IMG/VR virus record: IMGVR_UViG_3300028840_006010
Length of the DNA stretch: 64,000 bases
Source of the DNA: a virus
Reading direction: 5' to 3' (one strand)
Shown here: one piece after another, positions 10,443 to 63,504 of the stretch
How positions within the stretch are numbered: the first letter of the stretch is position 1
Layout of the letters: each line of letters begins with the position of its first letter
Notes under the pieces: generated by a model
Database searches by the model: none
What the model was told of the DNA's origin: nothing
The model's input: only the letters and a program-made list of their open reading frames with translations
Made by a program: the position numbers and the translations under genes

Positions 10443-10443
10443 A

Positions 10444-26357: not shown

Positions 26358-26687
26358 CAAATTATTTATGGTGAGGAAATACTTCAAAAAGGCTCGAGAG
26401 TTGGTGCAATACTAGGCGTCAATAACGATATCGTAGATTTTCTTGGATTTGGTGTATATGTAGGTGATGAGATTCCTTATGAAGCGGTAGGATTCATTGC
26501 ACAAACACTCAAAAAAACAAAAACAAAAAATCCTAAATTACAACTTGATTCTGGAAAAGTTGTATACGGTTGTGAATGTTGGTGGGGCGGAGAAAGAGTA
26601 TTGAAAGAACAACTGGAAAGATATAAAGGAATCAATTACGTGGACATTGATGAATATCGAAAAAAAATTATTGACGGTCAAGGTTGA
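26358..26687 (+). CDS. hypothetical ~109-aa ORF with CxxC motif (VYGCECWWGG). No ATG/GTG/TTG start; in-frame ATA 4 nt after SD GGTGAGG.
   Basis: Frame open 26358-26684, stop TGA 26685-26687. SD GGTGAGGAA at 26370-26378. Not in the ORF track because it lacks a canonical start. Confidence 0.3.
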   Translation, partial: QIIYGEEILQKGSRVGAILGVNNDIVDFLGFGVYVGDEIPYEAVGFIAQTLKKTKTKNPKLQLDSGKVVYGCECWWGGERVLKEQLERYKGINYVDIDEYRKKIIDGQG

Positions 26688-29118
26688 CCGTTACAACTTT
26701 TCGTGATGGCACTTCAATTTTAAATTGTTTTAGAGAGTTAGGTTCGGATTCATCCAAGTAATTATCAATCGAATCAATTTTGCCTACCTTAATGGTATAT
26801 TTACCTGCTGGTAAAACGTAATCATTTGGATTTCCTGTTACCACTTTTTTGTTGTTTTCATTATAGATAGAAATATTATAATTAATTGATGATAACAACC
26901 GAAGGGTTCCGTATCCTCTCCATTGTAACCATTCTAAGTCATCGAAATCTGCCGTTTTAATATAATTACGCCAATGTTCACGACCTTCTTCCGTATCACG
27001 TTCTCGTATAGCCTGTCTTACTCTTTCATCCGAGTCATTTGTTAATACATTGATTATTCGGGGGTCCAGGTTAGGTGAAATAGCTGTACATATACGTTCC
27101 ACAATATTTCCTTTTGCTAAACGTTCAGCGTATGTATAAGGTATTTTTTGATACATCATAACATATACACGTTCAGCCATAATCGGTGATTTTAGGAACT
27201 TGCCAATCATCTGTTGTGATAAATATTTGTTTGGTATATAATTTTGGTATATTGCCATTTTAGTTTCACTTTTTTGTCCTGATAATAATTGTTTTAATTG
27301 TGATTCGCTTATTTTATAATACCGTAGGAAGAACGGGTCTGTGTATTTATCCCAATACGCTTTTAATATACTAAATGGAATTGGTATAGTACGCCGATTG
27401 ATTATTTTTCTTAATAATTCATCTTCATCAGAATTTTTTATGCGATTCAATAATTTTCGTTGTATTCTTTTCCATGTTTCTGCTCGTACACCTTGAGGTA
27501 CCTTTTCTAAAACATCAATATATCTTTCATGATAATTATGGTCCACCGGCCATATTTCTAATAATCGCTCTGGGTCCAAATTACTAAGATGTAACAGACT
27601 CGCTGGGTTTTCTTTTTTAATCATGTCGTACATTTCTGGTGTCATTTGTAGATGCTTGTTTTCTTTATCTTCAATTCTTTTTATAATCTTGTCACAAAGT
27701 GTTCTATCACCAGTTTTTCGACATAGATGCATCAATTGTGGAATAGTCAAATCATCACGTGATTTTAAATTTGACAAAACACTCGAATCAGCTTTTTTAT
27801 CATATATCAATCGTTGTACTAACCGGTTTGGAATCTTATCCTGTTGTTTGGACAAAGTTAAACGATAATCTTTAGGTGTAACACTTTTTAATTCTGGTGT
27901 ATAGCTGAAAGTCTTGCTACCTATTTGATAAGGAGTGGTAAGATTGTGTGTAGCATAACCTTTACTTTGCAAATACGATTTTACTATATTATGTGTCACT
28001 CCTCCTAATGAGGTAGGATATATTTCTGGATTCAACCCTATATTAGGGGTTCCAGCGCGTGTTTCTCCCCACCGTAAGAAAATACGACCAGATGGTGTAT
28101 CTTTACCTGGTATCTTATCATCAAGATAAATCCAAGCAATAGCGTTTTTATTTGCAACATCATCCCATACATAATGCTGTTGAGCACCAGGACTTTGTAA
28201 TTTACCTGCTGATTCATTCCAACTTGTTGAAAATGTTTGACAACTGTTCCATGGAACATTTGTTGATTTTCTCATTACATCTGTAGGATAATCTGATATT
28301 AATATTCGGACCTTTTCTGGATTTGGATTAAAAAGTGTAGTTAATTCACGAATATGAGGTGGAGGTTTATTAAATAATTTTAATATATTTTTATGTTTTG
28401 TAACGACATATCGCGGTGGTTGACCTGGTTTTTCAAGTACCATTTCTACATCAACCATCATTGGTTCTTTTGGATAATTGAAATGAATAAGATATTCTGG
28501 TTTCGCTTGACGTAGTTCATCTTTAAGATAATTTTGTATTAAAGCGGCAAGCTCATTTTTTGCAGTGGTATCAAATTTTGCCGGATTAATAGTATGAACA
28601 CCAACAATTTTGGCGAAAGGAGTTTCTTGCACACGTTTTCTACGTAACAATGCATCCGCAAGTCTGTCAGAATAATATTTTTCTACAGTACCCCCTGATT
28701 TAAAATGGTCAGGCATTTGTCTTTCTGCTTCAGCAAATACAGTACCCATCGTATCAAATTTTGGAAACGTTTTTCGGAAAGCTGAAACACGAGCAAATGA
28801 ATGAACCGGTTCATCCTTATATTCTTCAGGTACTTTATGTCTGAGTGGGTCAAAAGGTCGACAATCAAACATGTTGATATGTTTATCCCTATCCCAATTA
28901 CCAAACGGTGATAATGCTAATCCATATCGTTGTCGTGCTTGTGGATATGAAAGGTTTTTGTTTGGTTGTTTTGGTAAAGGGGTCAAAGGACGAAACGCTG
29001 GTCGTATTTTAACAGGTTGTGTATTGAACATAGGTCTTGATTTTCTTCTTACGGGTTGTACACCCCAATAATTTTCCATATTATACCCTCCATACTTTGA
29101 CGCCGCCAGGCGCCTCAT
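26668..29118 (-). CDS. large hypothetical protein (816 aa) with LRV/HEAT-like repeats near the C-terminus (VLTNDSDERVRQAIRE)
   Basis: Long uninterrupted ORF on the minus strand. No catalytic motifs recognised. Confidence 0.75.
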   Translation of the reverse strand: MRRLAASKYGGYNMENYWGVQPVRRKSRPMFNTQPVKIRPAFRPLTPLPKQPNKNLSYPQARQRYGLALSPFGNWDRDKHINMFDCRPFDPLRHKVPEEYKDEPVHSFARVSAFRKTFPKFDTMGTVFAEAERQMPDHFKSGGTVEKYYSDRLADALLRRKRVQETPFAKIVGVHTINPAKFDTTAKNELAALIQNYLKDELRQAKPEYLIHFNYPKEPMMVDVEMVLEKPGQPPRYVVTKHKNILKLFNKPPPHIRELTTLFNPNPEKVRILISDYPTDVMRKSTNVPWNSCQTFSTSWNESAGKLQSPGAQQHYVWDDVANKNAIAWIYLDDKIPGKDTPSGRIFLRWGETRAGTPNIGLNPEIYPTSLGGVTHNIVKSYLQSKGYATHNLTTPYQIGSKTFSYTPELKSVTPKDYRLTLSKQQDKIPNRLVQRLIYDKKADSSVLSNLKSRDDLTIPQLMHLCRKTGDRTLCDKIIKRIEDKENKHLQMTPEMYDMIKKENPASLLHLSNLDPERLLEIWPVDHNYHERYIDVLEKVPQGVRAETWKRIQRKLLNRIKNSDEDELLRKIINRRTIPIPFSILKAYWDKYTDPFFLRYYKISESQLKQLLSGQKSETKMAIYQNYIPNKYLSQQMIGKFLKSPIMAERVYVMMYQKIPYTYAERLAKGNIVERICTAISPNLDPRIINVLTNDSDERVRQAIRERDTEEGREHWRNYIKTADFDDLEWLQWRGYGTLRLLSSINYNISIYNENNKKVVTGNPNDYVLPAGKYTIKVGKIDSIDNYLDESEPNSLKQFKIEVPSRKVVTVNLDRQ
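26674..26691 (-). terminator. perfect 8-bp stem hairpin (ACGGTCAA-GG-TTGACCGT) at the convergence point. A T8 run follows it on the minus strand (26660-26667).
   Basis: Read directly. Overlaps the stop of the + ORF (26685-26687) and precedes the stop (26668-26670) and U-run of the minus-strand gene. Confidence 0.55.
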
Positions 29119-30196
29119 AATCTGATGGATTTATTTGAACGTTTCTTATAAAGATATTATTTACTAAACCATCTCCTCCATAACTAAGGAACATAAACGG
29201 GTCATCAAATTTTTCATAACGTAAAATTTTAATCATTTCTTTTGGGATTGTTACATTACTACAACCTCTACCTGCGGATTCATACGGTTTAGGTGTAAAA
29301 CCATATAATGATTTTGATTTGTAAATACCGGGCGATAAATGATAACCATAAAAATTTGTATCGATACCAAGATTTATTTTAGATTTTCCTTTCTCCTTTG
29401 CTTCAATCATCATTTTTGCATATGCTAATTCATCGAGATATTTACTATCCCGAGTGAAAGCTGAATAAGAGGCAGAATATCTATCACCCAGGTCTTTTAA
29501 TAAACGACCTCCTAATAATTTATCATCTTTTTTAATGTAAAATCCTGTATGTTTTTTTGGTGGAAATATACCACTTAATTTATCAGAAGGACGACCACGA
29601 GGTTTGCTTGTCAATGTTTTTTCATAAACATCTCTGTACCAACTTTTGTATAAATCTTGGTCCTGCATGTCTCTATCCCAATATAATTCTAAATCCTCAT
29701 TACGTTTACCTTCTTGTAATGAATTCAATGCTCGTCTTATATCACGACCTTTTTTAATGCTTTTAATATACGTTTCAATGTCTTGTACAGGACGTGTCCA
29801 AGTTACACGAGAAGGCACTTCAAAAAATCCTTGTTCAGTTAAAAATTTTTTAACAGTAGCATCATATTTCGTTACAACTATAATATCATCATTTAATTTT
29901 AATTCATTTCGTAATATGCCAGCCATTGTACCATAATTTGGATTGCTTACATGTTTTCTTATTGCGTCAAAACCTTTCCATCTTTCCTTATGTATTCTAA
30001 CTTTTGGAAACTTTTTTTCTTGTTTTAATACTTCAATTTTCACATCATCTGATGGGTCATTCAATAACATGCCGTATATTACATCAGTAATATTTGGATT
30101 GTTTGCTAACGCGATACGGTCCTGTATATTATTGCTATCAGCGAATTGGAACATATCATTAACGTTTGTTGTTGTTTCTGGATTAACATGTTGCAT
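29081..30196 (-). CDS. hypothetical protein (371 aa) with N-terminal LRV/HEAT-like repeats (IALANNPNITDVIYGMLLNDPSDDVKIEVL)
   Basis: Overlaps the downstream minus-strand gene by 38 nt. Divergent promoter region at 30197-30476 with TTTATATA. Confidence 0.7.
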   Translation of the reverse strand: MQHVNPETTTNVNDMFQFADSNNIQDRIALANNPNITDVIYGMLLNDPSDDVKIEVLKQEKKFPKVRIHKERWKGFDAIRKHVSNPNYGTMAGILRNELKLNDDIIVVTKYDATVKKFLTEQGFFEVPSRVTWTRPVQDIETYIKSIKKGRDIRRALNSLQEGKRNEDLELYWDRDMQDQDLYKSWYRDVYEKTLTSKPRGRPSDKLSGIFPPKKHTGFYIKKDDKLLGGRLLKDLGDRYSASYSAFTRDSKYLDELAYAKMMIEAKEKGKSKINLGIDTNFYGYHLSPGIYKSKSLYGFTPKPYESAGRGCSNVTIPKEMIKILRYEKFDDPFMFLSYGGDGLVNNIFIRNVQINPSDYEAPGGVKVWRV

Positions 30197-35390: not shown

Positions 35391-35780
35391 TATCATCTCT
35401 AAATAATCTAGAGGATTCAAAACTTATATAAACCACCGGCAACATAATTATTGTTAGGTTAGGTGGTTCAAACGCGAGAGAGATTATTACTACTTTTTAG
35501 GTGTAAAAAAGTATTTTTTAAGGAGGGATAATTATTTACCAAACATACTTTGTTGTAAAAATAAAAAAGCCTTTTGGTGATGGTACAGTAAAATTTGTGA
35601 GGGGTAAACGTTACTGGGAACCTGAATACTTAGAAGGTTTGAAATTCAAATTTCCTTTAATCAAAAGAGATTTTTCAAAAGACCAGGTTATAGATTTTCT
35701 ACGTAAAAAATGGGATTTTTGGTATAATGATATTGAAATGTTAGAATCAGATGATTATGGAATATTTGGAGGACTCTAAT

Positions 35781-36422
35781 ATGAAAAACAAAAAGAAATA
35801 TATGGCATTGTCGATGATAATGTGCATTACGCTGATAGTAGTTGCTCCACATTCATTGGGAGATGAACCTGTATCAGGCACATTCACTCCAAAAGCAGAA
35901 GCTACTATCTTCGGTGTATATCCTGCAAATACATCAACATCTATTGATAGACCGGCAACTAATATGAGTTCCTATATCAATTCATCGGTGACGTTTGATG
36001 TTTATTTCTATTTGTATAACGAAACTGGTCTGTCACCAACATGGACGCTCATATACAATTGGTCTAACGAAACATCACAACGCTTCAGCGTACCACGTAC
36101 TTATCTTGATGTATTTGGTTTGGGCACGGAATTTATTTGGGGTAACAACACATACACATGGAGAATCATGACTCGGGTATGTGCTACCTGGCAAAATTTT
36201 ACATACACCTATACAACAAATGCTACCACCGTTATTATGGACAAAAACGCAAGAATGGATGTGAACAACAACGGATACATTAATGTGTTTGATACGGCAG
36301 ATGATTGGGCACATCATACGTTCGGCGGATATGCAGAATATAATAGAATATATGATGTAAATAATGACAACAAGGTTGATTCACTTGATTTGTCGGCAAT
36401 CTGGGGTCAAAAAACAATTTAG
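35781..36422 (+). CDS. secreted protein with C-terminal type-I dockerin domain. Paralogous to the C-terminal ~170 aa of the giant adhesin.
   Basis: Signal peptide. Dockerin Ca-binding loops DVNNNGYINVFD and DVNNDNKVDSLD followed by a helix. Shares the FYLYNETGLSPTWTL...WGNNTYTW block with 53060-53556. Confidence 0.7.
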   Translation: MKNKKKYMALSMIMCITLIVVAPHSLGDEPVSGTFTPKAEATIFGVYPANTSTSIDRPATNMSSYINSSVTFDVYFYLYNETGLSPTWTLIYNWSNETSQRFSVPRTYLDVFGLGTEFIWGNNTYTWRIMTRVCATWQNFTYTYTTNATTVIMDKNARMDVNNNGYINVFDTADDWAHHTFGGYAEYNRIYDVNNDNKVDSLDLSAIWGQKTI

Positions 36423-36439: not shown

Positions 36440-36490
36440 TTGGTGGGAACCACCAAACCTATCCACTGCTGAAGGGGTTAATACCCCTTC
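36440..36490 (+). terminator. two adjacent GC-rich hairpins (TTGGTGG-GAA-CCACCAA; GAAGGGG-TTAATA-CCCCTTC) immediately after the stop of the dockerin gene
   Basis: Read directly; unusually GC-rich for this genome. Confidence 0.4.
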
Positions 36491-37844: not shown

Positions 37845-38155
37845 GATGGATTAAAGCATCAATAGGATTAGCAGCCTTCGGTTTTATTAATTTAGTCCTA
37901 TTCATAGCAATAAGCGCCCCGTTTTCATCAGTATTACACGCAATGTCCGATGAAGCAGGAAAATTGGATGAATATGAATACAACTATTCTTCAGGACAAG
38001 GAGAAAAAACAGGAAGGACCTTAAACAATAGTAATTTCCAACATTTTTACGGTATGATTCGTATGATATTTGGATTAACATTCGTATTCAGTATGTTTGG
38101 TTCGATTGTATGGTTCTTCTTAGGAACACATGAAGAGGAATATGAACAAGCTTAA
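37841..38155 (+). CDS. small membrane protein (paralogous motif VWFFLGT shared with 58602..59051)
   Basis: Two TM helices. Confidence 0.45.
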   Translation: MRWIKASIGLAAFGFINLVLFIAISAPFSSVLHAMSDEAGKLDEYEYNYSSGQGEKTGRTLNNSNFQHFYGMIRMIFGLTFVFSMFGSIVWFFLGTHEEEYEQA

Positions 38156-40049
38156 AGTAGTAACATACACAATACTCATGATATGTGCATCATGTCTTAC
38201 TGTATCATCTACATCTAATTATGATGTTATTACGTTGCAACCTGGAACGCATTTGATTCCTGCGGAATATTTTAACAAATTAGAAGTAAAAAATTGGGAA
38301 TACACTTATGTTATTGAAAAAGAACCCACAACACGTTTCTTTACAACTGATAACATACGCCAATCAACTGATGTACATTATAATCAAAAATATTATTATG
38401 ACATCATTGAAAAAGGAACCCAATCATTTGTCCGTATATTTATTCCTGAATGTTTTTATCAAAACGAGAAAAAATACCAAACAAATCAAATAGAATTCAA
38501 AATACATTATCATAATTATCATAATCGTCCTTTAACACTTTCACCTGCAATTGAACAACCACAAACAGAAACATATGAATATATCATCATTTTAAACGAA
38601 TCATATTGGAATATTGTTAATCATGAATTTAAACATTGGAAACAACTTCATGACACTAAAATAAACCGTATACTTATTGTCAACGTATCAACTATTATTA
38701 ACAACCCTGATTATTGGGTAAACGCAACCTACGGCGATGCAACAGACGCTTCCGGTGGTAATCATTGGATAGCCAATGGAAAACAAATATCATCAAACTA
38801 TAATCTTTTTAATGATTCACAAGCAAAAATTAGAAACTTCTTACGTTATGCTTATGATACATATTCAACAGAATATGTTCTTCTTTTTGGAAACCGTGAC
38901 CTTGTACCTGTAAGACAAGCATGTAGTTATGCAACAGGAGATGAAGGAGGCAGTTATTATAACGATTTATCACACGCCTCCGATATGTATTATGCTTGTT
39001 TACATAAATCAATGAACAATAACACCAACACACGCTTTATGGAGAACCGTTGCTATTCATATGGTTGGGATGAAATAGATTGGGGATATGACCTTTGTGT
39101 TGGTCGTGTACTTATCAATTCAATGAATGAAGCTCGCCGTTGGATAAACAAAACGATTGATGCATATCAAGGCAACTCGATTGATGAGTATTTGAAAAAT
39201 CACATTGTTGCAACGAAAAACAACGCCAATCAAATATCAAGTATGACTTGGAGTATGATTGGTGATGAATTCCAACAGAATCAAACATTCCTTAACAATC
39301 GAAACATATCATCTTCGCAATGGAATAACATTGATGATTATGTCAACGGATTAATAGATGGCTGGTCAGGTTTTCAATTTATTTATCATACGGGACACGG
39401 AGGGACATTGTGGACTCCATATCAACCATCAAATTGTTTTAATGATGAAACACCACAATTCGTTTACACCGAAGGATGTCATTCTGCCAATTTTGGTTCA
39501 TCATCATCAAGCAGAATGGAACAATGGTTACAAGATGATGGTTGTGCTTATGCTGGAATAGCCAATTCAGCGTATGGTTGGTTTATTGCTTCAACATATT
39601 ATGGAGAATCACTGTGCGATTATCTTTTCGATAATCAAACGACAAATGTTTGGTGCCAAGCTCATAATGATGCTCGGGAAGCACACCCAACGACAAACAA
39701 TAGTGTTTTTGCAATGATTATCAAGGAATCAAATTTCTTTGGTGACCCTGCGTTAGAATATCAATGGTATTCGGAAAGCCCAATCAAAATGCTTACACCG
39801 AATCAAACAACATACACAACTCCACATATTGTTATCAATTGGTCGTCTTGTACTGGCGTTAGCCGATACAGCGTTATTGTCGCTGAAGACGAATCATTTA
39901 ATAGTATCATTTTCAACGCATCAAATGTAAGTAAATATGGTTGGCCTTCAAGAGTGACCGAACAATACGGTGTAATGTCATTTGTATTACCAATAGACGT
40001 GGAATTTAAAGATTATTATGTAAAAATAAAAGCATTTAGAGGTGGATAA
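38130..40049 (+). CDS. secreted clan-CD (C25 gingipain-like) cysteine peptidase-like protein
   Basis: Signal peptide. His-Gly dyad FIYHTGHGG and Cys ~40 aa later VYTEGCHSANFG. Many N-x-S/T sequons. Confidence 0.45.
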   Translation: MKRNMNKLKVVTYTILMICASCLTVSSTSNYDVITLQPGTHLIPAEYFNKLEVKNWEYTYVIEKEPTTRFFTTDNIRQSTDVHYNQKYYYDIIEKGTQSFVRIFIPECFYQNEKKYQTNQIEFKIHYHNYHNRPLTLSPAIEQPQTETYEYIIILNESYWNIVNHEFKHWKQLHDTKINRILIVNVSTIINNPDYWVNATYGDATDASGGNHWIANGKQISSNYNLFNDSQAKIRNFLRYAYDTYSTEYVLLFGNRDLVPVRQACSYATGDEGGSYYNDLSHASDMYYACLHKSMNNNTNTRFMENRCYSYGWDEIDWGYDLCVGRVLINSMNEARRWINKTIDAYQGNSIDEYLKNHIVATKNNANQISSMTWSMIGDEFQQNQTFLNNRNISSSQWNNIDDYVNGLIDGWSGFQFIYHTGHGGTLWTPYQPSNCFNDETPQFVYTEGCHSANFGSSSSSRMEQWLQDDGCAYAGIANSAYGWFIASTYYGESLCDYLFDNQTTNVWCQAHNDAREAHPTTNNSVFAMIIKESNFFGDPALEYQWYSESPIKMLTPNQTTYTTPHIVINWSSCTGVSRYSVIVAEDESFNSIIFNASNVSKYGWPSRVTEQYGVMSFVLPIDVEFKDYYVKIKAFRGG

Positions 40050-40051
40050 AA

Positions 40052-41785
40052 ATGAGAAAAGAAAGAGTAATTTATAGTGCCATTTTAGTTGGCATATTAA
40101 TAGGAGTTGTGTTCTTTAGCGGAACAACATCAACCGTCACAATCAACGATACAACAGTAACTACAGACAACATAGCACCAACAGGAAGTCAATTATTTAT
40201 TCAAGGAAATATGAATATGAGTAATAATAATCTTACTAACATGTCTCATTTAGAATTAGGACCTCATTATGATATCTATGGTTTTATACCATTTTTAAGC
40301 ATGTATAAAAATGAATCTGTTCCTTATATAGCAGGTCCAGGTCATCGAGATTATGGCATTTATTATCGCAGAGAATTTCCAGATGATATGGCTGCTTCTA
40401 CAGCCACAGCTGTGTGGGGTTCTAGCATATTCATATCAGTTCCTGAAAGCAATCATGAAAATCTTAATATTCTAAGATTATATGGACAACAAATCAACCT
40501 AAATAATAATGGGTTAAACAAAGCACAAATTATGGAAGGTTTTTCTTCTTCAATTAATGATAATGGTAAACCAACATACAACATAAGAGGTTATAATTCT
40601 TATATATATACAGGAGCTGTGGAAGCAAAGGCGTTTAGAAACGTATTTACACCATGTGGAAATTCAAATACTATGTATGGTTTTGACAATGAATTTGGAT
40701 TAGATAATTATGATTTTATAGCTCGAGTTAATAAAGCATATGGAGCCAATATATATTTTGAAGACCCTTATTGGACTAATTACACACATTACAATGAAAC
40801 ATATGGTTATTACTTTGATGGTAATTTTTATGAAGCTCCTGACCCAGATAATCAATATGGAGTATACTTAACAAACATCTCTGCTAATAACGATTCCTAC
40901 GCCATCTACGCTGACAGTGGCGATACATTTCTTAATGGAACACATACTAACGTCACTGGAAAAGTCGCTATTGGTGAGTATGAAGAAGAGGGTATACCAT
41001 CAAATATCAATGAACCAAAAGTTTGTATATTTGAAAATTCAACTGAAGGTGATAATAACGCTTTGCACGTATATAAATCCGTAACAGATGATTATATTAG
41101 AGATGGTTTCTTTAGTTATCAAAAAGGAATATACGTAAAAAATGAATTACCAATTAACAGTAACGCTACAAAACCGATGTTAATGACGATAGATTCAACT
41201 GCTTACAATCGTGCTCCTAACGATGTTTATGCTCTGTATTGTTTAAACCTTAATACTCGTAATTTTAATTCCAATTCTGATATAAATAAGTTATTCGCAA
41301 TCGGTTCACAACGTCAAGCAAAATCTCATGTGAATGATACTTATGGATTTTATGATGCGCTAATGGCTAATACAGATACATGTGATATCGACAATAATTT
41401 TTTCAATTATTTTAAATTACACCTTACAGGAACAGGATTTATTGAAAATTCATATGGAACATGGCTCGGTTTTTCTGAAGATATTTCTACTGGTGGAATA
41501 GTAAACAACTCATATGGTTTATATGTTGACAATACCAATGATGGAACACAAATCAATAACACGTATGGTGTATATATCAAAAACGTTTCTTCTGAAGTTA
41601 ACTCATACGCCATTTACGTAGAAGACGGCGACACACTATTACAAAACACCACCATCGATAATGTATTACATCTCACGCCTGTTGCCACCGCTCCAACATC
41701 TCCAACTGAAGGAGATATTTATTACAATTCAACGACCCATAAACCGTATTGTTATAATGGTTCTGCATGGAACCCATTTTGGTGA
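40052..41785 (+). CDS. fibre-like repeat protein with N-terminal membrane anchor and conserved C-terminal GDIYYNSTTHKPYCYNGSAWNPFW motif (tail-fibre-repeat-like)
   Basis: Internal repeats NSYAIYADSGDTFLNG / NSYAIYVEDGDTLLQN. C-terminal motif resembles the phage tail-fibre GDxYxNxxxxxxYxYNGxxW signature. Confidence 0.45.
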   Translation: MRKERVIYSAILVGILIGVVFFSGTTSTVTINDTTVTTDNIAPTGSQLFIQGNMNMSNNNLTNMSHLELGPHYDIYGFIPFLSMYKNESVPYIAGPGHRDYGIYYRREFPDDMAASTATAVWGSSIFISVPESNHENLNILRLYGQQINLNNNGLNKAQIMEGFSSSINDNGKPTYNIRGYNSYIYTGAVEAKAFRNVFTPCGNSNTMYGFDNEFGLDNYDFIARVNKAYGANIYFEDPYWTNYTHYNETYGYYFDGNFYEAPDPDNQYGVYLTNISANNDSYAIYADSGDTFLNGTHTNVTGKVAIGEYEEEGIPSNINEPKVCIFENSTEGDNNALHVYKSVTDDYIRDGFFSYQKGIYVKNELPINSNATKPMLMTIDSTAYNRAPNDVYALYCLNLNTRNFNSNSDINKLFAIGSQRQAKSHVNDTYGFYDALMANTDTCDIDNNFFNYFKLHLTGTGFIENSYGTWLGFSEDISTGGIVNNSYGLYVDNTNDGTQINNTYGVYIKNVSSEVNSYAIYVEDGDTLLQNTTIDNVLHLTPVATAPTSPTEGDIYYNSTTHKPYCYNGSAWNPFW

Positions 41786-41790
41786 GCTAA

Positions 41791-43629
41791 ATGAATAAAG
41801 AAAGAATGCTATTGATATCATTAATAATAGGGCTTTCGCTCATATCGACATCTGTTGCCTATGACTCTTTAACGATAGTATCAACGAAAACAACGAAAGA
41901 TGTATTGTTTGTCGTTAGCAATCAAAATTACACAACTAACGCAACGATGCAGTTTTCAGAAATCGTTGTTGACACCAGCGATATCACTTTCAATGATACA
42001 ACATTTGAGGTCGTATCACCGAATAATATTGCGATAGCGTTAGACACGTTGAAGCAGGCACCCGCTTGGTGGAATACATCATTTTCAAAAAGCAAGACAT
42101 ACGTTATCAATCCAAATATGATTGACGAAACATTATCAAACTTTCCTGTTTTGGTAAAAATCGACAGCACGACAGGTGCGTTGTGTGATGATGGGAATAG
42201 CATTCGATTTATATCACCTGACAACCAAACGGAATATCCGTATGAAATAGATACATGGAATAATTCAGGCACCTCATTTGTTTGGGTTAAAATACCTACA
42301 GTAAGTAATACCACAAATACTCGGTTCTTAATGTATTACAATAACAGCAACGCCGTTGATGGTGAAACGCCAACGGAAGTATGGGATGATAATTATGTGT
42401 ATGTAAACCATTTTGGTTATGACTACAATGACAGTACAGGAAACGCTCCTACCACAACAAATACCGGAGTAACATTTATTTATGATGATGTTTGTGGTAT
42501 GAGTGGAAGTTTTTATCCTACTGACCGTTTACGAATACCAAGCTATGACAAATTAAATGTTTCTGAGATTAATTTAAATGTTATTGGTAATGTTAGAGAT
42601 AGGGATACTGCTACATATGGTTGTTTTATTAGTAAATCTTATGCTTCTCAATATGAATTTAGATGGCTTAGTTGGGATGGTTATTTTGAAGGTAAAATTG
42701 GTGGTACTCAATATAATGATATTACTCTTACTCATAATTTCATTACAGAAGGTTCTTACGCCAATTATTTAATTACATATGAAAACGGCGAGAATATGAA
42801 ATTTTATCGTGATACTGTCTATAAAGACGATATTACGATAAACGGTGGATATTTTAATACATCTACATCACCTATGTATGTTGGTTATAGAAGCGCCGAT
42901 GTTTCTTTTGATGGTAATTTTACTGAATTACGTATTTCAAATATTACAAGGAGTGATGCTTGGAATGATGCTGTATACTCCAGTGTTATGGATTACGATA
43001 ACTTTACCATCGAAACCGAGAACCATGATTATGCTGACAGCACACCAAGACCATTAGCGTTTTATGCTGAAACATCCGCAGGAAATGTTAGTTTCAATAT
43101 ATCGGGATTTATGGCGGACACACGTTATGATGTTATTCGTGGCGGTAGTACAATCGCTTCTCGTTTAACGGATGCAAATGGTGTAATCCGATTTACAAAT
43201 GATGTGTGGAGCGAACAACACTTTTACATCAACTCAAACAACATCATTGATGTAGCCGTTGTGCCAAGTGTTTGGCAAGCTGGCAACATTGAGTTAGGGG
43301 AAAACGCACAAAACAACTTTACATTTTATCAAAACGGCACAGCATCACTTGACATTAGTATCGGGTATAACACCACGAACTACTCATTTGTTTCTTACAG
43401 TGCATGGAAAACAGGTGGAAACAATCAGGTTTGTGCAAACTATACGGCTGACGTGTGGCTTGCCGAATCAAACATTGCTCCTGGCTATCCTCCTTCAACA
43501 GGTTTGAAAGTGGACTTTGAGTCAGGGAATTTTGTATTTGGAAATAGATTATGGGCACCGAGAACAACGTTGGGTTTAGCTCAACTTGAAAACTTTGATA
43601 TTGTCCTAACGGTGCAGGAACATACATGA
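41791..43629 (+). CDS. secreted DUF2341 + LamG (concanavalin-A-like lectin) domain surface protein
   Basis: Signal peptide. FPVLVKIDS...IRFISPDNQTEYPYEIDTWN...FVWVKIP...LMYYNN (DUF2341 pattern). TELRISNITRSDAWNDAVY (LamG-like). Confidence 0.6.
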   Translation: MNKERMLLISLIIGLSLISTSVAYDSLTIVSTKTTKDVLFVVSNQNYTTNATMQFSEIVVDTSDITFNDTTFEVVSPNNIAIALDTLKQAPAWWNTSFSKSKTYVINPNMIDETLSNFPVLVKIDSTTGALCDDGNSIRFISPDNQTEYPYEIDTWNNSGTSFVWVKIPTVSNTTNTRFLMYYNNSNAVDGETPTEVWDDNYVYVNHFGYDYNDSTGNAPTTTNTGVTFIYDDVCGMSGSFYPTDRLRIPSYDKLNVSEINLNVIGNVRDRDTATYGCFISKSYASQYEFRWLSWDGYFEGKIGGTQYNDITLTHNFITEGSYANYLITYENGENMKFYRDTVYKDDITINGGYFNTSTSPMYVGYRSADVSFDGNFTELRISNITRSDAWNDAVYSSVMDYDNFTIETENHDYADSTPRPLAFYAETSAGNVSFNISGFMADTRYDVIRGGSTIASRLTDANGVIRFTNDVWSEQHFYINSNNIIDVAVVPSVWQAGNIELGENAQNNFTFYQNGTASLDISIGYNTTNYSFVSYSAWKTGGNNQVCANYTADVWLAESNIAPGYPPSTGLKVDFESGNFVFGNRLWAPRTTLGLAQLENFDIVLTVQEHT

Positions 43630-44423
43630 TAAAGAAAGCAGTAATCATCATAATACTGGTTGCCAGTTTGTTAATGCCTACAGTTACAGTCAGTGCTAAA
43701 ATATATAACATTAAAATTGAGCCTGAATATGATGGATATTGTTGGTATACAATCAAAAATGATATAGATGTTATGGATAAATCGGCTCATAGGAGCTCTT
43801 TATCATGGGCTAGTTTTTATGAATGGAATTTGTCTAATATTCCATTAAATGCTACTATTCTTAATATAACATTCCATTGGACTATTGTTGATAACAGAGC
43901 CCACAATGCAAAAGTTCGTATTCAAGAAATTACAACAAAACCTTCAGAATATAAAGAAACAAATGTTGAAAATAAAAGTTTGTATTTAAATATTATAAAT
44001 GGAGAAACATTATATTCAAGATATGCTTTTTCCAGTTTAGATTTTGATTATCATTTGAATAAAATTCAAGATAATATTTCTAGAGGATGGTATTCTTTTG
44101 GTCATATAGTAAGGAGATATGGTACGTTTGGAGATAAATATTTTCATGTTGCATCAACTCGTTCCGACAATCCACCTTACATGTGGATAACATATCATGT
44201 TCCTTCAGTTTTTGCACAATTACATCCCACACCATCAAATAATAGTGTTGTAGGAAACCCATCAGTCTCAACAGGTATAACAGTATCCCATATCAATCCT
44301 ATAAATCTTACCTTCAAATTATACAACACATCATCTGGAACATGGAATACATTTATGATTACAATAACAATGGATTGGTTGAAGTATTTGACCTTTCTAT
44401 ATTATGGAATAATAGAACAATAG
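43626..44423 (+). CDS. secreted hypothetical protein
   Basis: Signal peptide; 265 aa; ATGA overlap. Confidence 0.55.
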   Translation: MIKKAVIIIILVASLLMPTVTVSAKIYNIKIEPEYDGYCWYTIKNDIDVMDKSAHRSSLSWASFYEWNLSNIPLNATILNITFHWTIVDNRAHNAKVRIQEITTKPSEYKETNVENKSLYLNIINGETLYSRYAFSSLDFDYHLNKIQDNISRGWYSFGHIVRRYGTFGDKYFHVASTRSDNPPYMWITYHVPSVFAQLHPTPSNNSVVGNPSVSTGITVSHINPINLTFKLYNTSSGTWNTFMITITMDWLKYLTFLYYGIIEQ

Positions 44424-44460
44424 AATAAGGATAAAAAAAAATAAAAAAGGTGCGAGAGAG

Positions 44461-47400
44461 ATGAATAAAATAAAAACAATCTTGATAGTAATGCTTTTTA
44501 TAGCAACTATTGTACCATTAACGGTATCATCTGACGACCCATATATTCCACAAGCAGATGTATATGTGTGTGGTACTATGGGAGCAGGCTGGTATGATGC
44601 AACGCATGTTGCAACGATAGCTGAAGGAATAACGAATGTATCATCAGGTGGAACCATTTACGTGTGGAATGGCACATATGATGAACAACTGACTATATCA
44701 AAACAACTAACCTTACAAGGAAATTCATCGGCTGCTACAATCATAAGATATAATTCAGGAAATATTGTAACAGTAGTAAGCGCAGACGGATGTGCTTTCA
44801 AAGATTTGAATTTTACATGGACAGGCGGTTGGAGCAACTGTATTGATATGCAATATTGTAATAATACATTGATTGACAATGTGCATTTTAAAGATGGCTA
44901 CAGCGCTGTTGATATTGTTGATAGTAGAAATTTTACATTTTCAAATTGTGTTGTTAGAAGTATGTATGCTTATGGTGTACATCTGACTACTGTAACATGG
45001 GCAAACATTACTCAATCCAATTTTGTTGATAATGATAATGATATTTATATATGGAGAGGATATCATATAAACACTTCACATTGTAGGTTTTATAATCATC
45101 CAGGTGAGGATATAGCTGTACGTATGTCAACGACAACAGGATATAATTCTTATTATACAATATATGATTGTGATATTGAAGCTAATACAGGTTGGCCTGG
45201 AATATATATTGGAGGTCGATATAGCAGAATAATTCAAAATCGGATTAGTAATTGCTCTAGTGCTATTCATTTGTCAGATTCTAGTGCTTACTATACAGAA
45301 GTAAAAAATAATGTTATACGGGATTGTTCTCTTGAAGGTATTAATGTAAATTATGGTCAATCATCTACAACTCCAGGTATCATTGCACATAACTCTATTA
45401 AAAATTGTACCTATGCATTAGAACTTGACGATACATCATATTGGACTATTTATAATAATTATTTCAATAATTCAATCGAGTTTTCTGGTACCGTTCACCA
45501 CATTACGTGGAACATATCTAAAACGACTGCCCCCAACATTGTAGGAGGACCATATCAAGGTGGTAACTTTTGGAGTGCATATTCAGGTGTAAATCGAGGC
45601 GATGGTTTTGGTTCAACCAACTATACAATACGCCAATGGAGCGATATTGATTACCTGCCATTAGTTGATGATTATTATCAAGTATATGTTGATGATGACA
45701 AACCTGCTCAATGGTATGATGTGTATCATGTCGCTACAATACCAGAAGCAATCACCAACATCACTAACGGAACGATTTATGTGTGGGAAGGTACATATGA
45801 TGAAGAAGTTACTATCAATAAAGAAGTAACGTTGATTGGAAACGGCACTAATTCAATAATCACAAATCTAACTATAGTTTCTAATGATAATGTAACGATA
45901 ATGAATCTCAATTTCACACGGAGCGGTTCAGGGGATGCAATACGTTTATCTTCAAAAAATAATATCACCGTTAAAAATTGTGAGTTTTATAATCTTGATT
46001 CTGCTATACTTATGTATTCTGATTTAGAAGGCTTTAACTTTACAGGATGTAATTGTACAAAATGTGGATTGAATGATGGATGTTTAGAATTTAATTGGGG
46101 CTCAGGAACATCACAAAACAACGTTATATATGATAACGAATTTTATAATATAGGTACTGAAGAAACAATATACATGGGAGATACCGTAGGTGATTTTGTT
46201 GTGGCAAATAATGTATTTAAAAACACCGATGATATAACCTTACGTTCAAGCGAATCAGCGAATCATATTTACAATAACTCTTTTATTGGAAGTAGCACTA
46301 CTATAGGAGTAGGCGATAATGATGTTATTTCTTATAATACTATTAATGATGCCAGCTCTGCCTTTTCTTGTTATGCTTCCAATGTTGATATTCATCACAA
46401 CAATATTACTACAGTAGAAAATTACGCTTTTTATTTGGGTACAAGCGCAAGTGATGTACAAATATATTCTAATAACATAACTGGAGTAGATACAGTTGCT
46501 TATTCACAATCAGGAATAGTGGATGCTACATTTTATAATAATTATATATCTTATGATTCATCTAAATCAAGTGGAAGTGGATATGACAAAATTATATGGA
46601 ACACCACAAAAACAACAGGACCTAACATAATAGGAGGACTATCTATCGGAGGCAATTATTGGGTGCAATATACAACAGCCGTTGATACAACAGGTAATGG
46701 TTTTGCAAGCCAATATCAAATTAATACAGGTGTTTATGATTATCTCCCACTATCAAACAATCTGACAAGTATATTTGTTTCATCAAATCAACCAGCGGGT
46801 TGGTATAATGAACATAGAGTACATACAATTTCAGAAGCAATCACTAACGCTTCAGATGGTTGGACAGTTTATGTTTGGAATGGTTCATATAATGAGCAAG
46901 TAACAATCAGTAAACGGTTAGACATCATAGGTAATACATCAGCAAATGTAACCATTACTGCACCTTCCTCACCAGTCATTAAAGTATCATCTGACCACGT
47001 AAACATATCAAATGTAAATGTTACAGGTTCTGGTTTCATAGGATTGGATATTATAAACTCAATTGATTATGTCAGAATTACCGATTCAAGATTCTATGGA
47101 CTAAAATATGGAATAACCAACCAATCATACCATAATTTAGATTTTATTAACATATCCAATTGTAATTTTACTCATATTTCTGGCACAGCAATTCAGTTTT
47201 ATCCTGACTCATATTCCGATAATGTTACAATAGATAACAATGAATTTTATGGTAATGACGGTGATATGGATTATGGAATAGTCATTCATAGAGGAGATGA
47301 TTGTACTATATCGAACAATCAATTCAAACAATTATATTACAATAGTTTATTATTGAATGATAATGCTTGTCAAAGAAATACAGTTGAAAATAACACATTT

Positions 47401-50400
47401 ACTAACACAAACGGAGGAATTTGGACTTATTCAACTGGTCATATAAAATACAATACATTTACTGACATACCTACAAATGATTACCCGATATCTATTCTGG
47501 CTCATGATGGTATGGTTTACGTACATCATAATGACATATCAAGCTGTTGGCGAGGTATTGAACTCTATAACAATGGTGAGAATGCAACGATTTATGCCAA
47601 CAATATTAGTACAACGAATTATTCAATATTTGGAGGAACAGGTGTTAGTAATGTATTCGTTTATAACAACCGATTATATCAAGATGTAGGAGGCACATCA
47701 TTTGGCGAATGGAATACAACAGAATCAATCGCCACTAACATAATTGGAGGACCAACAATCGGTGGTAACTGGTGGGCTCAATATACAGATGCTACAGATA
47801 CAACAGGAAATGGAATTGCCGATACGCATTATGAGGTATTTTCAGGTGTTTATGATGAACTGCCAATAACGAATAATATATCACTTCAAACTTTCTATGT
47901 ATCAAATTCAATGGGAGAAAATTGGTATGATTCAAATCACACTCATACAATAAACGATGCATTAACGAACCTTTCTGATAATGGTGGAACGATTTATGTA
48001 TGGGATGGCACGTATACAGAAACACTTGCTATCAACAAACCAAATGTCAATATTATTGGAAACGGAACTGACGTTACAACATTACAACATTCTACAGGAA
48101 ATTTAATACATATATACCAAAGCAACATAAATATTTCTCATATGTATCTTAAAACAACATCATCAAAAAATATGCATGGAATAGTAAAAGACACAGGCAC
48201 GGTAAATAATTTAACATTTTATGATTTACACCTTTACGATTTCGCTTATGGAATCCATATATACAACACTGTAGACAATGTTACCATTAAGAATTGCAAC
48301 ATCACTGATTGTGCCACTGTTGGTGGATTAATGGCTGTTGAAATAAAAGAAGGTTGTAGTAATGTAACAATCACTAACAACGAATTTTACAACAATACAC
48401 AACGGTGTATGTTTATTTATAATTCCAATGATATTGCCATAACGCATAATATTATAAAAACAACTTACTATGATGCTATACTCACTCAATATGGTAAACG
48501 GTTTGAAATAAGTAATAACACCATTACTGATTCACTTTATTCAGCTATTTATTTCAAATCATCTGGACATGTAAAATACAATAATATTATTAATTGCAAT
48601 CATGGGATTGTAATAGAAGCAGATGAAGTCTCGATGGTAAATCAATACTACCATCATAATATTATTGATAATGCTGTCGGTGGAGCATTCGCAATAGGAA
48701 CACCCAAAGGCGTACAACCAATAGTATATAGTAATGAAATAAGAAACGTATCATATTGTATATATTGTTATCAATCATTATCAAATGGAACATTTTATAA
48801 CAACAATTTTACAGGTATTGTAAATTCAAATAGCAAATCATTAACAGGATGTTCTTTCAACATAACACAACGAACTGGTCCTAACATCATCGGCGGGCAA
48901 GATATAGGTGGAAATTATTGGTCAGGATATACTGGTTATACAACCGGAGATGGAATTGGTACAACATCATATCAAACATATGTTGGTGGTCCATACGATT
49001 ATTTACCTTTGACAAATAAACAAAACATCATTTATGTATCTGGTTCAATGGGAGCAGGATGGTATAATGGAGCTCATGTGGCAACAATAGCCGAAGCAAT
49101 AACTAATATGACGCTTAATAACAGCGGAACGGTGTATGTATGGGAAGGAACATACAGTGAAGACCTAACTGTAGATAAAGGAATTACGTTTATTGGAAAC
49201 GGCACAGATAGAACAAATGTATCTGGTGCTTGGACGATTTCACATGATAATGTAACCATCCAAGCTATGAATTTATCAAAAAACAGTGGGACTATTATAT
49301 CAACAGGTACTTCTAAAGACATTAATATAAATAACGTAAAATTGAGTACTGCTACATATGGTATATCTAGTACAACAGGAAAAAGAATCAATGTTACAAA
49401 TTGTACTTCATCATACAGTTTTGGATGGTATGCAATACATTTTGTTGGTACGACACATTGTAATGTTAAAGATAACACATTTACTGGTGGAGCACTTCCG
49501 ATACATGGGAAATATGCTGACTATCTTAATGTATCTAATAACTTCGTAAAAGGCACCAATATCATAGAATATTCTAATTATACTACGCTTTACAATAATT
49601 CTTTCTATAAAGGTCAAGGTGCATATATTTATTCAACACTTGAGATTACCGGATGTACGGAAACTACCATACAAAATAACAATATCTATAAATCCACCGG
49701 TCAATCAGCTATTGAAATACAAAGCGGTACTAATAATAATATAATACATAATACAATCAATAACACAGCTTATTATGGTCTATTTGTTAGTAGCACAGAA
49801 AATAATATAACAATCAAAAATAATATATTTGCTAATAACAGCGAAGTAGGTAGCAATTATCATGATATAACATTATTCGATAGTTGCAATGACGTACTCA
49901 TATATAACAATAGATTTATGACTACCAACAATCCTGATTTTAACAGAGCTGATGTTATTAGTGTAAACAATGTAACTCTTAACACAACACAACAAACTGG
50001 ACCTAATATCATTGGCGGTCAGGACATTGGCGGTAACAAGTGGAGTTTATACACTGGCGTTGATATAACAGGAGACGGTATTGGCAGTACATCATATACC
50101 ATTGATGGAGTAACTGATTATTTACCATTAACAAATACAAGACAATATACGACAGTGTATGTATCAGGTTCAATGGGAGCCGGATGGTATAATACAACAC
50201 AAGTTCACACGTTAGCAGAAGCTGTAACAAACATTTCAAATGTTGGTGGAACAGTATATGTTTGGAATGGAACATATACAGGTGGCGCTACAGTAACAAA
50301 AGCTATAACATTTATTGGAAATAGTACTGCTAAAACAAATATTACAACAAACGAAATAGATATTGAGTCCGATAACGTATCAATAAGCAACTTCAATTTT

Positions 50401-53400
50401 ATTGGTAGCGGTTCTGGAAATGCTTTAAAAACCAGTGGAGCTACTTGGAGAAGGAATATTACAATACAGAATTGTAAATTCTATAATTTTGAACAGGGAT
50501 TTTTTGCATATTCTGATGTTCAAAATTTTAACATAACTGGTTGTAACTTCACTTCTTGCGGTTTGAATGATGAAGCTTCTATCCAATTTAATTTTGGAGC
50601 ACCTGAATCAACAGGTTTGGTAATCCATCATAATGAATTCTATAATGGAGGAGACGCTATCTACATGACAGAAGATTGTACTATAATCAATAATGTGTTT
50701 AATACTCCAGGATATCACGCTATACACGCAACTTCTTCTTGTGATGTGATGAATGCTTATAATAATACTTTCAGGAATGTTGATTATGCAATATTTGGTT
50801 ATGGTGCCGGTCACATTAAATATAATACTGTAGAGAATTGTAATACTTTTATGGGCGTATATAGAGACAACATCAACATACATCATAATAACATCTCATG
50901 GTGTAGTGCATCTGGTTTTTATTTCGGAAGCGCTTCAGCCACGAATAATAACATTTATTCAAACAATATAACTTGCAGAAATTTCACATTTGCTCAAAAT
51001 TGTATTGGAGGAAATGTTATCTATAACAACTACATCAACGTTACCAATTATGTTGCATGGGGTACTGATAGAGCATATCTTGAATGGAATACAACCCAAC
51101 GAGAAGGAACAAATATCATCGGAGGACCAAACATAGGAGGTAATTATTATGTACAATATACCTCTGCCGTTGACACTACGGGTGATGGATTCGCTAGCGC
51201 TTACGATATTCCGCCTTATGATGATGCAACGGATTATCTGCCTTTGACCAACAATTTATCGTTAACAACTTGTTATGTATCCAATACACAACCAGCTGGT
51301 TGGTATGATGTAAATCATCTCAGTACTATAAGTGAAGCGTTAACAAATATCAGTGACACGGGAGGCACCATTTATGTTTGGGACGGTTGGTATACAGAAA
51401 ACATCAACATCACTAAGAACCTTACTGTTATCGGTAATGCGACAGCAACAGTGCACCTTGGAGCTTCCAATCAAGCGGATTATGTAATCAAGGTATATGC
51501 GGATAACGTTACTGTAAATAATTTTGAAGTGTTAAACAGCACACACGGAGTAAAAATAGCACCCGATAGCTTCTTATGTAACATAGAAAACACAACGTTT
51601 ACTGACATCACTATTACAGCAGTTGAAGTCCGTGGAAATTGCGCTGAAATAAAATATGCAACAGCTGGAGCATTATATGGCGTTGATAATTACGCCAACT
51701 TCTTATCTGTTCAGAACTCAACATTTACAAGCACTCATACAGGTGTAAAAACACAAGGAATCAATACAACAATACGTGATTGTAATATCACTCAACAAGA
51801 GGTTGCTGGTTGTTATGGGTTGAATGCCGAGAACTTTTCAGTTAGACATACCGAATTTTATGATATCAGAAACGGAACTTCGTATGCAGGAGCAGTTATT
51901 TATCATAATGTTGATGGTGTAAGAATACACAGCAATTACATGAACCTAACAGAATATGCATTATACGAACCAAATCCAACACCAGGCGGTTTAGTATGTT
52001 TCTATAATAACAAAGTATACAATTCCGATGCAGGTGTTGATGTTGGTAATTTACAACAAACAGCATCCATTGGTGATTGTATCATGTATACTAACAACAT
52101 GACAATCGACATAAATGAAACTGCATATCCCGTTGTATATGGTTCTACTTTACAATCATATACAAGTTGCCCAATTCGTATGCAAGATGTTACTGTTATA
52201 AGTATTTCAGATAACGTTATTATTGAAGGAACATATGGGATGTGGCTTGAAGTATCAACTTCTGTCGGGAATCATATTTATGATAACACGATAAGAAATT
52301 GTACAACGCAAGGTATTCATGTTGTAGGTGGAAGAGTTGATGTATACAACAACACGTTTGACAATATAACCAATGATGGTATTTACAGCCGATTTAATAA
52401 TAACTCAGCGATTATTTACAATGTTATCAATAATTCTATTGCCGGAATAACAGTATCACATTCTACAAGTCCAAGAATATATGAAAATAACATTACAAAT
52501 GCTTCTACAAGTGCAATATCTTGTGCAAACTCAGATGGTAACATTATCCATCATAATCGTATTGACAATATGATTTGGTTATATCAAAACGATAATTCAC
52601 AGGCTCATAATAACACAATAGCTGGTTCTGGCAGTGATATTGGAATATCACTGCAAGGTGTCTCGATTGGTATAGACATTGAAGCGAATTATATCGACAA
52701 TTTCGAAGATGGTATAAAGATTTTTGATTCAAACAGACATGTTAACATATCAAACAACTATATTGAAAATTCGTCACGATATGGAATAAATGTTTCTGGT
52801 GTTTACATAAACTCATTATGTTATAACAATTATTTCGCCAATAACGGTAATCATGTATATGACACATCATCTGACGTTAATGACCGATACAATACTACCC
52901 AACAAACAGGACCTAACATAATCAGCGGACAGGACATTGGTGGTAATTATTATGATAATTACACAGGTGTTGATACAAACGGAGATGGAATTGGTGAAAC
53001 TGTTTTCGTATTAGGTAATGGTTACATTGATTATCTACCATTAACGAATAATCAAGAATTAACAAATATTACTAATCCATTCCCTGCTAATTCATCGACA
53101 AGCGTTGCAAGACCTCCAGTTAATATCAGCGTTACAGTTAATGGAAGTGTTGAATTTTACCTCTATTTCTATAACACAACAGGTATTAGCCCACAATGGA
53201 CATTGATGGACAATTGGACTGTTTCTGGTAAAGAACGATGTGAAATGGTAAGTCTTGATAGTTGGGGGTGGGGAACGCAATTTGTATGGGGCAACACAAC
53301 CTATACTTGGAAAGCATGTGCGTATAACAATACTTGGTTAAACAACACTTATACATTTACAACATTAGCGGATGCAGGAGGAGCCAATGCTCGTAATGAT

Positions 53401-62976: not shown

Positions 62977-63062
62977 ATTTTCATCACCATCCTGTTTATT
63001 TGAAAAATAGTATATTAAGTTAATTTAAGTATTTTTCGAAAACTTGAATTCCCATCTCTTTT

Positions 63063-63176
63063 CCGGGCACTTTATTACTCTGTAATAAAGTGAAAAAGTG
63101 AAGAGTTTAAATCTTTTTTCCGGGCACTTTATTACTCTGTAATAAAGTGAAAAAGTGAAGAGTTTAAATCTCTTTT
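63063..63176. repeat. two tandem 57-bp repeats, each containing an 11-bp perfect inverted repeat CACTTTATTAC-TCT-GTAATAAAGTG (63068-63092 and 63125-63149); operator-like
   Basis: Read directly. Located in the divergent intergenic region between 62976(-) and 63505(+). Confidence 0.8.
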
Positions 63177-63504
63177 TTATGTACAACGTAAAAAATGAAA
63201 AAATTAAAAATTATGTTATACAAGCGTATTATAATCTATTATTTTTGTATTATTTCTCGATAGAAAAGCGTATTTTTTAGAAAATTAATTTGAGTGAACG
63301 GTTTTTTAGAAAAAAAAAGTCGCCTTCGAGAAAAAATGTGATACGGATTGCAAATCCCTTAGACTAACTAGAAACAACTATAGTATTTTTATGCGATTGG
63401 ATATCTATTAGTCCCAATCGCAAAAATACAATATTTGTTTTCAAAAGTTAAGGACTAACAAAATATTTAAACCCGCCCCGCCTTAATAATTATGAGGAAA
63501 GACG

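Follow-up and report, generated by a model that had tools for sequence, protein, structure and literature searches.

A C-terminal beta-sandwich–dockerin cassette common to a small cassette-only protein and a giant beta-helix protein of a putative large mobile element

The 64,000-nucleotide stretch analysed here (IMG/VR virus record IMGVR_UViG_3300028840_006010; in the following, the window) encodes two proteins that end in the same cassette, an Ig/Fn3-like beta-sandwich followed by a dockerin. One is a small, cassette-only protein of 213 amino acids (aa; 35781..36422, + strand), the other a giant secreted, adhesin-like beta-helix protein of 3031 aa (44461..53556, + strand). Cohesin–dockerin pairs are the high-affinity "plug and socket" of bacterial cellulosomes and are widely used in protein engineering; what such pairs do in archaea is, to our knowledge, an open question. 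We consider it probable, if not compelling, that the cassette is a dockerin-type surface-anchoring module by which a large mobile element, carrying its own family-B DNA polymerase (PolB), displays an adhesin on its host. This reading is carried by the common cassette, the dockerin and cohesin homologies, the strictly C-terminal position of the cassette, and its fusion, adjacency and co-occurrence with cohesins.

An earlier note on this stretch had described a common C-terminal cassette of ~170 aa, and the alignment bears this out. In BLASTP, the small protein and the last 251 aa of the giant protein show 83 identities over 165 aa (50%, E = 4e-41), and the copy in the giant protein (53080..53553, + strand) matches profile A1 with E = 1e-72. 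Both open reading frames (ORFs) contain the quoted YLYNxTGxSPxWTL and WGNxTYTW blocks, and the four loops DVNNNGYINVFD / DVNNDNKVDSLD and DVNDDNVVNVFD / DVNNDDVVNTID are all present in the pair; a regular-expression search of all six frames of the window found paired loops of the dockerin type in no other ORF. The nearest non-orthologous relative of either copy is the other one, at ~50–53% identity and tied with the proteins P0011 and P0148. Orthologues of both exist in a sibling element, represented by a 232-kb ENA contig that runs collinear with the window, starting at the resolvase and continuing past the giant protein. Here, the cassette of the small protein is 79% and that of the giant protein 92% identical, the orthologue of the latter protein being P0006. 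As the two copies in the window are only 50% identical to each other and each has such a close orthologue in the sibling, the duplication or exchange that gave rise to them appears to be old, and on these identities we regard them as old paralogues without a recent swap.

The last ~55 aa of the cassette are identified as a dockerin by hidden Markov model (HMM) and profile comparison. In the small protein, the dockerin half occupies 36246..36419 (+ strand) and contains two putative Ca-binding loops (36258..36293 and 36354..36389) with a helix after each; in the giant protein it starts at ~53386 (+ strand), with loops beginning at 53398 and 53494. The loops DVNNNGYINVFD and DVNNDNKVDSLD of the small protein are spaced 32 residues apart and precede helices at residues 169–176 and 201–208 in the AlphaFold2 (AF2) model, i.e. 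the two tandem segments of 12-residue D-x-[ND]-x-[DN] loop plus helix that characterise the dockerin family are found. With 25.1 bits (E = 2e-5), the small protein exceeds the gathering score of Pfam Dockerin_1 (PF00404; 22.9), and 11 of 57 family members match this model at E <= 1e-3. Moreover, a profile of the dockerin segment from 28 family members (A4) ranks dockerins first among PDB entries (1ohz_B, 8e-5; 2ccl_B; 4fl4_A; 2b59_B, 9e-4; 3kcp_A, 3e-3), while calmodulin-type EF-hands occur only at E > 0.1. The internal two-fold repeat of D-x-N-x-D loop and helix is visible across 147 family members, and the loops would be expected to bind Ca2+. The AF2 model of the small protein, computed from a 57-sequence alignment and replacing a 6-sequence run (pLDDT 64), is confident (pLDDT 89.8, pTM 0.77). 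It consists of an N-terminal helix, a short linker, an eight-strand beta-sandwich (residues 42–146) and two loop–helix units. The beta-sandwich half of the cassette (35916..36245, + strand; YPANTST ... WGNNTYTW ... YTYTT) is covered by no Pfam or NCBIfam model, and NCBIfam holds no family for the cassette, the cohesin anchors described below or the neighbouring proteins.

The extent of the family became visible only by exhaustive profile search, as word-index homologue searches gave two to three relatives each. A profile of six cassettes was compared with 1.84 billion representative proteins and matched 325 of them at E <= 1e-3, 197 at E <= 1e-10 and 117 at E <= 1e-30. The complete cassette is present in 134 of the best 151 proteins, and all except two of these 134 end within five residues of the C-terminus (132 proteins). 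The carriers are 152–4340 aa long (median 612), and the cargo domains N-terminal to the cassette, as determined for 57 members, include NosD/Beta_helix, PKD, FG-GAP, one CBM96, PhoX and others. Thus, the cassette forms the C-terminal end of more than 100 unrelated architectures and is, by this measure, modular at the level of the family. The modular exchange proposed in the earlier note stands in this sense, and not as a recent transfer between the two proteins of the window. Thirteen small proteins consist of the cassette only, and they display the same layout of signal peptide, G-[TS]-F-T-P linker and cassette. For this reason, the small protein of the window is a recurrent architecture and no truncated oddity.

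With respect to lineage, cassette patterns were scanned against one genome per GTDB species, which resulted in 12 loci. Eleven of these are located in metagenome-assembled genomes (MAGs) of Thermoplasmatota / Thermoplasmata / Thermoplasmatales, with up to four per MAG; the twelfth belongs to a 1.7-kb contig whose bin is labelled Chlorobiaceae. The flanks in the MAGs are chromosomal (methylmalonyl-CoA mutase, MeaB, TsaD, thiolase, beta-oxidation enzymes), and C25 peptidases and NosD proteins are found there as well. Chromosomal flanks and taxonomic distribution together identify the cassette as a native surface-protein module of Thermoplasmatota, and this phylum is the likely host lineage of the element. 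No match to the cassette was found in IMG/VR.

The candidate partners of the dockerin were identified in the same genomes. Two proteins with a cassette, P0056 at 47.6 bits and P0086 at 43.9 bits, exceed the cutoff of Pfam Cohesin (PF00963, 24.1). Searches iterated from this pair show that 18 of the 151 cassette proteins contain a cohesin, whose end frequently lies just one to five residues ahead of the cassette. Further cohesin ORFs adjoin cassette genes in MAGs: one starts 7 nt past the end of the cassette-gene match (L012:4579-5550), another 4 nt after it (L016:179-1702), and a third lies inside a cluster of three cassette genes (L007:7030-7866). Their common layout of signal peptide, cohesin, sometimes PKD, acidic D-x-D-G-D-G linker, one transmembrane (TM) helix and lysine-rich tail is as expected of a putative membrane-anchored socket. 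Compared with the PDB, a profile of 15 cohesins (A6) retrieves ScaB first (3l8q_A, 1.4e-7), and only cohesins rank above E = 0.1. For the divergent cohesins of the element type (A5) no direct Pfam or PDB match was obtained; hhalign ties them to A6 with 99.5% probability and E = 2e-23.

Cohesins of this kind are carried by the sibling element itself. Three tandem proteins with signal peptide, divergent cohesin, Fn3 and cassette (L018:5988-7961, 7976-9946 and 9959-11257, the last being P0007) are encoded ~40 kb upstream of its PolB, and a membrane-anchored cohesin with signal peptide, PKD, acidic DDNP linker, TM helix and basic tail (L026:1073-2065) ~7 kb upstream of its resolvase. On a 110-kb contig of a further element, the cassette-only protein P0154 is directly followed by a 950-aa protein with cohesin and cassette and by a 761-aa cohesin protein with C-terminal TM helix. 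This neighbourhood supports a functional link between the small proteins and cohesins. Orthologues of the sibling's anchor (73% identical) are present on the JGI contigs L033 and L034, the latter 9.2 kb long and from a sample that also contains the element of the window. As no overlap of L033 or L034 with L022, L023 or the window was found, the anchor orthologue could not be joined to the window's element. The earlier note had staked its view on a significant dockerin HMM and on a cohesin somewhere in the host or element genomes; both were found, the cohesins being fused to the cassette, adjacent to it or membrane-anchored. Candidates for the cohesin-bearing scaffold that it expected in host or virion are located in cassette-carrying Thermoplasmatota genomes and in sibling elements, and nothing points to the virion.

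A separate observation concerns sequence differences between dockerins. The first repeat of the element-lineage dockerins (36258..36293 and 53398..53433 in the window) reads ...[IV]-N-V-F-D, whereas most copies in MAGs have V-N-F-Q-D-A-G in both repeats. The two types may represent distinct cohesin-specificity groups, parallel to the cohesin subtypes A5 and A6.

Based on these data, we infer a physical cohesin–dockerin interaction and propose the following sequence of events. The small and the giant protein would be secreted via Sec, and on the outer side of the cell their dockerins would attach non-covalently to the cohesin of one of two kinds of protein. The first kind of presumed socket would be a membrane-anchored cohesin (signal peptide, cohesin, sometimes PKD, acidic linker, TM helix, basic tail), the second an adaptor composed of cohesin, Fn3 and a cassette of the same type. 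Proteins of both layouts are encoded by Thermoplasmatota chromosomes as well as by sibling elements, and the partner cohesin would be sought among them. In this way, a large PolB-encoding mobile element would use the dockerin to fasten the 3031-aa beta-helix adhesin that it encodes to the surface of its host. The small protein would be an anchor without cargo, in which either the beta-sandwich is the payload (a minimal lectin-like unit) or the protein caps cohesin sites or competes for them; the choice among these roles is guesswork. On a more speculative note, we suggest that a family of large archaeal PolB-encoding extrachromosomal elements, with sizes up to at least 232 kb, carries a self-contained display kit of membrane anchor, adaptors and cargo, including 3000-aa adhesins, which re-dresses the surface of their Thermoplasmatota hosts, and that cargo-less small proteins regulate the occupancy of cohesin sites as caps or competitors. 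This extended scheme is tentative, and we rate it as doubtful in its entirety.

Export of the two proteins is suggested by their composition. The density of N-x-S/T sequons is 4.2 per 100 aa in the small and the giant protein, compared with 0.1–0.8 in the PolB, Band_7 and ligase proteins of the window, and exceeds the shuffle expectation by a factor of ~1.7–2.4. This enrichment is consistent with exported, N-glycosylated archaeal surface proteins. Together with the predicted signal peptides, it argues for Sec export of both proteins and for their probable N-glycosylation.

Several observations weigh against the proposed anchoring function. The dockerin assignment of the earlier note is borne out by Pfam for the small protein only, as the giant protein alone stays below the Dockerin_1 threshold (14.5 bits, E = 0.043). 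The dockerin is also short, its second helix stopping about 10 residues before the stop codon. No cohesin was found in window ORFs of >=50 aa or in the 3.5 kb upstream (L022) with HMMER filters off (--max) and E < 50, and upstream of the resolvase, the element of the window is not syntenic with its sibling, so that an anchor of its own cannot be shown. The host is deduced solely from the taxonomic distribution of the cassette, and one PolB relative is binned as Heimdallarchaeaceae. Finally, many dockerin-like modules of non-cellulolytic organisms are without demonstrated partner (cited in PMC9012536).

These points lend some weight to an alternative in which the dockerin-like tail does not recognise cohesin but forms an EF-hand pair stabilised by Ca2+. 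Its partner would be an S-layer glycan, another surface protein or itself, or the tail would only stabilise the beta-sandwich before it, and the cassette would be a generic extracellular end-cap. The window without a cohesin would be accounted for, as would the cohesin in only 18 of 151 cassette proteins; EF-hand models of Pfam give weak scores too, and orphan dockerins are common outside cellulosomes (PMC9012536). What speaks for a cohesin-binding dockerin is the context, with cohesins fused just upstream of the cassette, adjoining cassette genes in MAGs and TM-anchored in the same loci and elements, and the ranking of PDB dockerins ahead of calmodulin-type EF-hands. We therefore consider the end-cap explanation unlikely, albeit the most serious of the alternatives.

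Two further explanations concern the nature of the element rather than that of the tail, and we deem both improbable. In the first, the element is a virus, the giant protein a fibre or spike with a dockerin tip, and the giant and small proteins serve as receptor-binding proteins of the virion for host cohesins. A viral identity is suggested by PolB, a clamp-loader-like ATPase, a ligase and many ORFans on one strand, by beta-helix proteins, which are typical of tailspikes, and by a 577-aa neighbour with a weak match to the PHROG "virion structural protein" (7e-4). On the other hand, no capsid, portal or terminase was found by Pfam or PHROGs in the window, nor in the precomputed Pfam annotation of ~95 kb of sibling sequence, the element being seen in part only. 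A comparison of the window's PolB with GenBank phages and archaeal viruses brought up no close relative (cyanophage gp43 with only 23% identity), and IMG/VR contains no match to the cassette. Signal peptides and sequon enrichment in all module proteins fit Sec export and not cytoplasmic assembly, and the sibling has a membrane-anchored cohesin gene of its own. The second explanation, that the window is a variable genomic island of a Thermoplasmatota chromosome and both proteins are ordinary host surface proteins on the host's cohesin–dockerin system, gains from the chromosomal cassettes and cohesins of the MAGs, the C25 peptidases and NosD proteins that adjoin cassette genes there too, and the 232-kb length of the sibling contig. 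Against it, neither the window nor the examined sibling stretches contain a tRNA, a ribosomal gene or a gene of core metabolism, and nearly all genes are on one strand. The element also has its own serine recombinase, ligase, Ku, DprA and PolB, the last with an intein in the sibling, and members of the PolB family occur on many contigs, the longest of 183 kb, whose binning is inconsistent.

In comparison with known systems, the cassette in its proposed function resembles the X-module–dockerin (XDoc) dyad of cellulosomal scaffoldins, e.g. the type II XDoc of C. thermocellum CipA bound to the SdbA cohesin (PDB 2b59, 3kcp). There, too, an Ig-like beta-sandwich directly precedes a C-terminal dockerin with two loops, and by means of this dyad a large extracellular protein is fastened to a cohesin anchored on the cell, as is proposed here for the cassette. 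The two systems agree in architecture, and the AF2 model is confident across both domains of the cassette; a specific similarity of the cassette beta-sandwich to X-modules was not found. The adaptor scaffoldin ScaB of Acetivibrio cellulolyticus (PDB 3l8q, 4u3s) bridges cargo and anchor with cohesins and a C-terminal dockerin, and P0007 and its two neighbours show the same order of cohesin, then dockerin. ScaB has several cohesins, in contrast to one per protein and Fn3 spacers in the archaeal sequences, and the sequence identity is very low; an adaptor function of the P0007-type proteins is suggested by layout only. Cellulosomes combine dockerins on glycoside hydrolases (GHs) with multi-cohesin scaffoldins that bear a carbohydrate-binding module. 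By contrast, no GH families occur in the 57 members analysed and each cohesin protein has a single cohesin. HMMs support an assignment of the cassette system to the dockerin and cohesin superfamilies, and its assignment to a cellulosome is not supported.

Archaeal cohesin and dockerin modules, including proteins that combine the two, are on record in Archaeoglobus fulgidus and in anaerobic methanotrophic archaea (ANME; Peer et al. 2009; Chadwick et al. 2022, PMC9012536). Like the cassette proteins, the non-cellulosomal modules of A. fulgidus and ANME-1/-2 are secreted, contain dockerin and/or cohesin, and are unrelated to cellulose degradation (PMC9012536). They differ in being chromosomal genes of Archaeoglobi and ANME, while the fixed cassette is found in Thermoplasmatota MAGs and in large PolB-encoding elements, which also carry anchor and adaptor cohesins. 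In the literature searched, no report was found of dockerins in Thermoplasmatota, of this fixed cassette, or of dockerins on archaeal extrachromosomal elements or viruses. The novelty anticipated in the earlier note is thus confined to the lineage, the fixed beta-sandwich–dockerin dyad and its presence on a large mobile element; the principle of archaeal cohesin–dockerin pairs is not new.

Our analysis defines a large, previously unnamed family of C-terminal cassettes composed of beta-sandwich and dockerin, and matching TM-anchored and adaptor cohesins in Thermoplasmatota, with the whole kit carried on big mobile elements. If the proposed binding is true, it would provide a concrete model of the way in which archaea that lack a wall or have an S-layer attach adhesins of very large size, and of how a mobile element can alter the surface of its host. 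It would also yield new orthogonal cohesin–dockerin pairs, possibly salt-tolerant ones, the sole ground for the latter being that the source samples are hypersaline sediment, as we presume.

The gene of the small protein is identical to that of the public protein P0001 at the level of the product, and 7 contigs of JGI, ENA and Logan samples encode this identical protein. The longest reading of the ORF is 35751..36422 (+ strand). The ATG at 35781 is the likely start because a ribosome-binding site GGAGG (35768..35772, + strand), read from the sequence 8 nt 5' of it, and the public gene call agree. A signal peptide is predicted at 35781..35861 (+ strand) by inspection of the N-terminus, which is K-rich and then hydrophobic (MKNKKKYMALSMIMCITLIVVAPHSLG, followed by DEP), and from paralogues with the same N-terminal layout; AF2 places a helix of low pLDDT at residues 6–17 of this stretch. 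The adjoining linker (35862..35915, + strand) contains a G-T-F-T-P motif common to the cassette-only proteins P0002, P0027, P0032, P0044, P0048 and P0125, and in cassette-only proteins of different elements, G-[TS]-F-T-P stands directly after the predicted cleavage site. A GC-rich hairpin 3' of the stop codon (GAAGGGGTTAATACCCCTTC, 36471..36490, + strand) could serve as terminator, with no T-run after it.

The giant protein matches Pfam NosD (1e-111) and Beta_helix (1e-73) and is built from seven repeat units of mostly ~370 aa. Each unit ends in a conserved ...TGPNIIGG..IGGNYW...D.TG[DN]G...DYLPL block, with D[YE]LP[LI] landmarks at aa 397, 760, 1132, 1513, 1886, 2258 and 2857. It belongs to a block of signal-peptide proteins that comprises a C25 peptidase, the 577-aa protein mentioned above, a DUF2341 protein, a 265-aa protein, the giant protein and two more NosD proteins. 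The first four genes (38130..44423, + strand; the DUF2341 protein has 612 aa) encode proteins without cassette and are arranged in the same order in the sibling. The C-terminus of the 265-aa ORF just 5' of the giant gene (44246..44425) shows a weak match to the first half of the cassette beta-sandwich (E = 9e-6) and has no dockerin. The two NosD/beta-helix proteins downstream (53942..58605, + strand) are part of the same surface module and have 463 aa and 1105 aa, the latter with fn3 and a C-terminal multi-TM anchor. By this multi-TM end, the 1105-aa protein (55288..58605) is predicted to be anchored directly in the membrane and not via the cassette; its gene has a TTG start, the first in-frame ATG being located 630 nt downstream. 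The gingipain-like C25 peptidase (38130..40049) and the 463-aa NosD protein (53942..55333) have a C-terminal domain of ~75 aa in common (BLASTP E = 1e-4).

The genes of the window are almost all on the + strand and include those of a serine recombinase, PolB, clamp-loader-like ATPase, T4-endoV-like glycosylase, Ku-like protein, ATP-dependent ligase and DprA as well as a Band_7 protein. The only big minus-strand genes are two overlapping large ORFs of 816 and 371 aa (26668..30196), for which no Pfam or PHROG match was found. As no tRNA was detected in the window or the sibling loci, there is no clue to an integration site. Like the small protein, the PolB recurs in identical form on contigs of several JGI, ENA and Logan samples. 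Between sibling and window, PolB is 80% and the small protein 73% identical. The sibling PolB (1045–1087 aa; L026:10001-13138, L027:10001-13264) contains a LAGLIDADG intein that is lacking in the 733-aa PolB of the window (1374..3575), and the PolB family is large, with 112 clusters at E <= 1e-20. A 62.8-kb JGI contig was considered as the missing part of the window's replicon and rejected; it has its own intein-containing PolB, 80% identical to that of the window, and is a copy of part of the 232-kb sibling. Near-perfect intergenic tandem repeats are located at 5705..5831 (53 bp, 2.4 copies, 98%) and 63054..63177 (57 bp, 2.2 copies, 97%). Synteny with the 232-kb sibling begins at the serine recombinase gene (602..1180), upstream of which the sequences differ completely (L026/L027 versus L022), suggesting a recombination junction at the resolvase.

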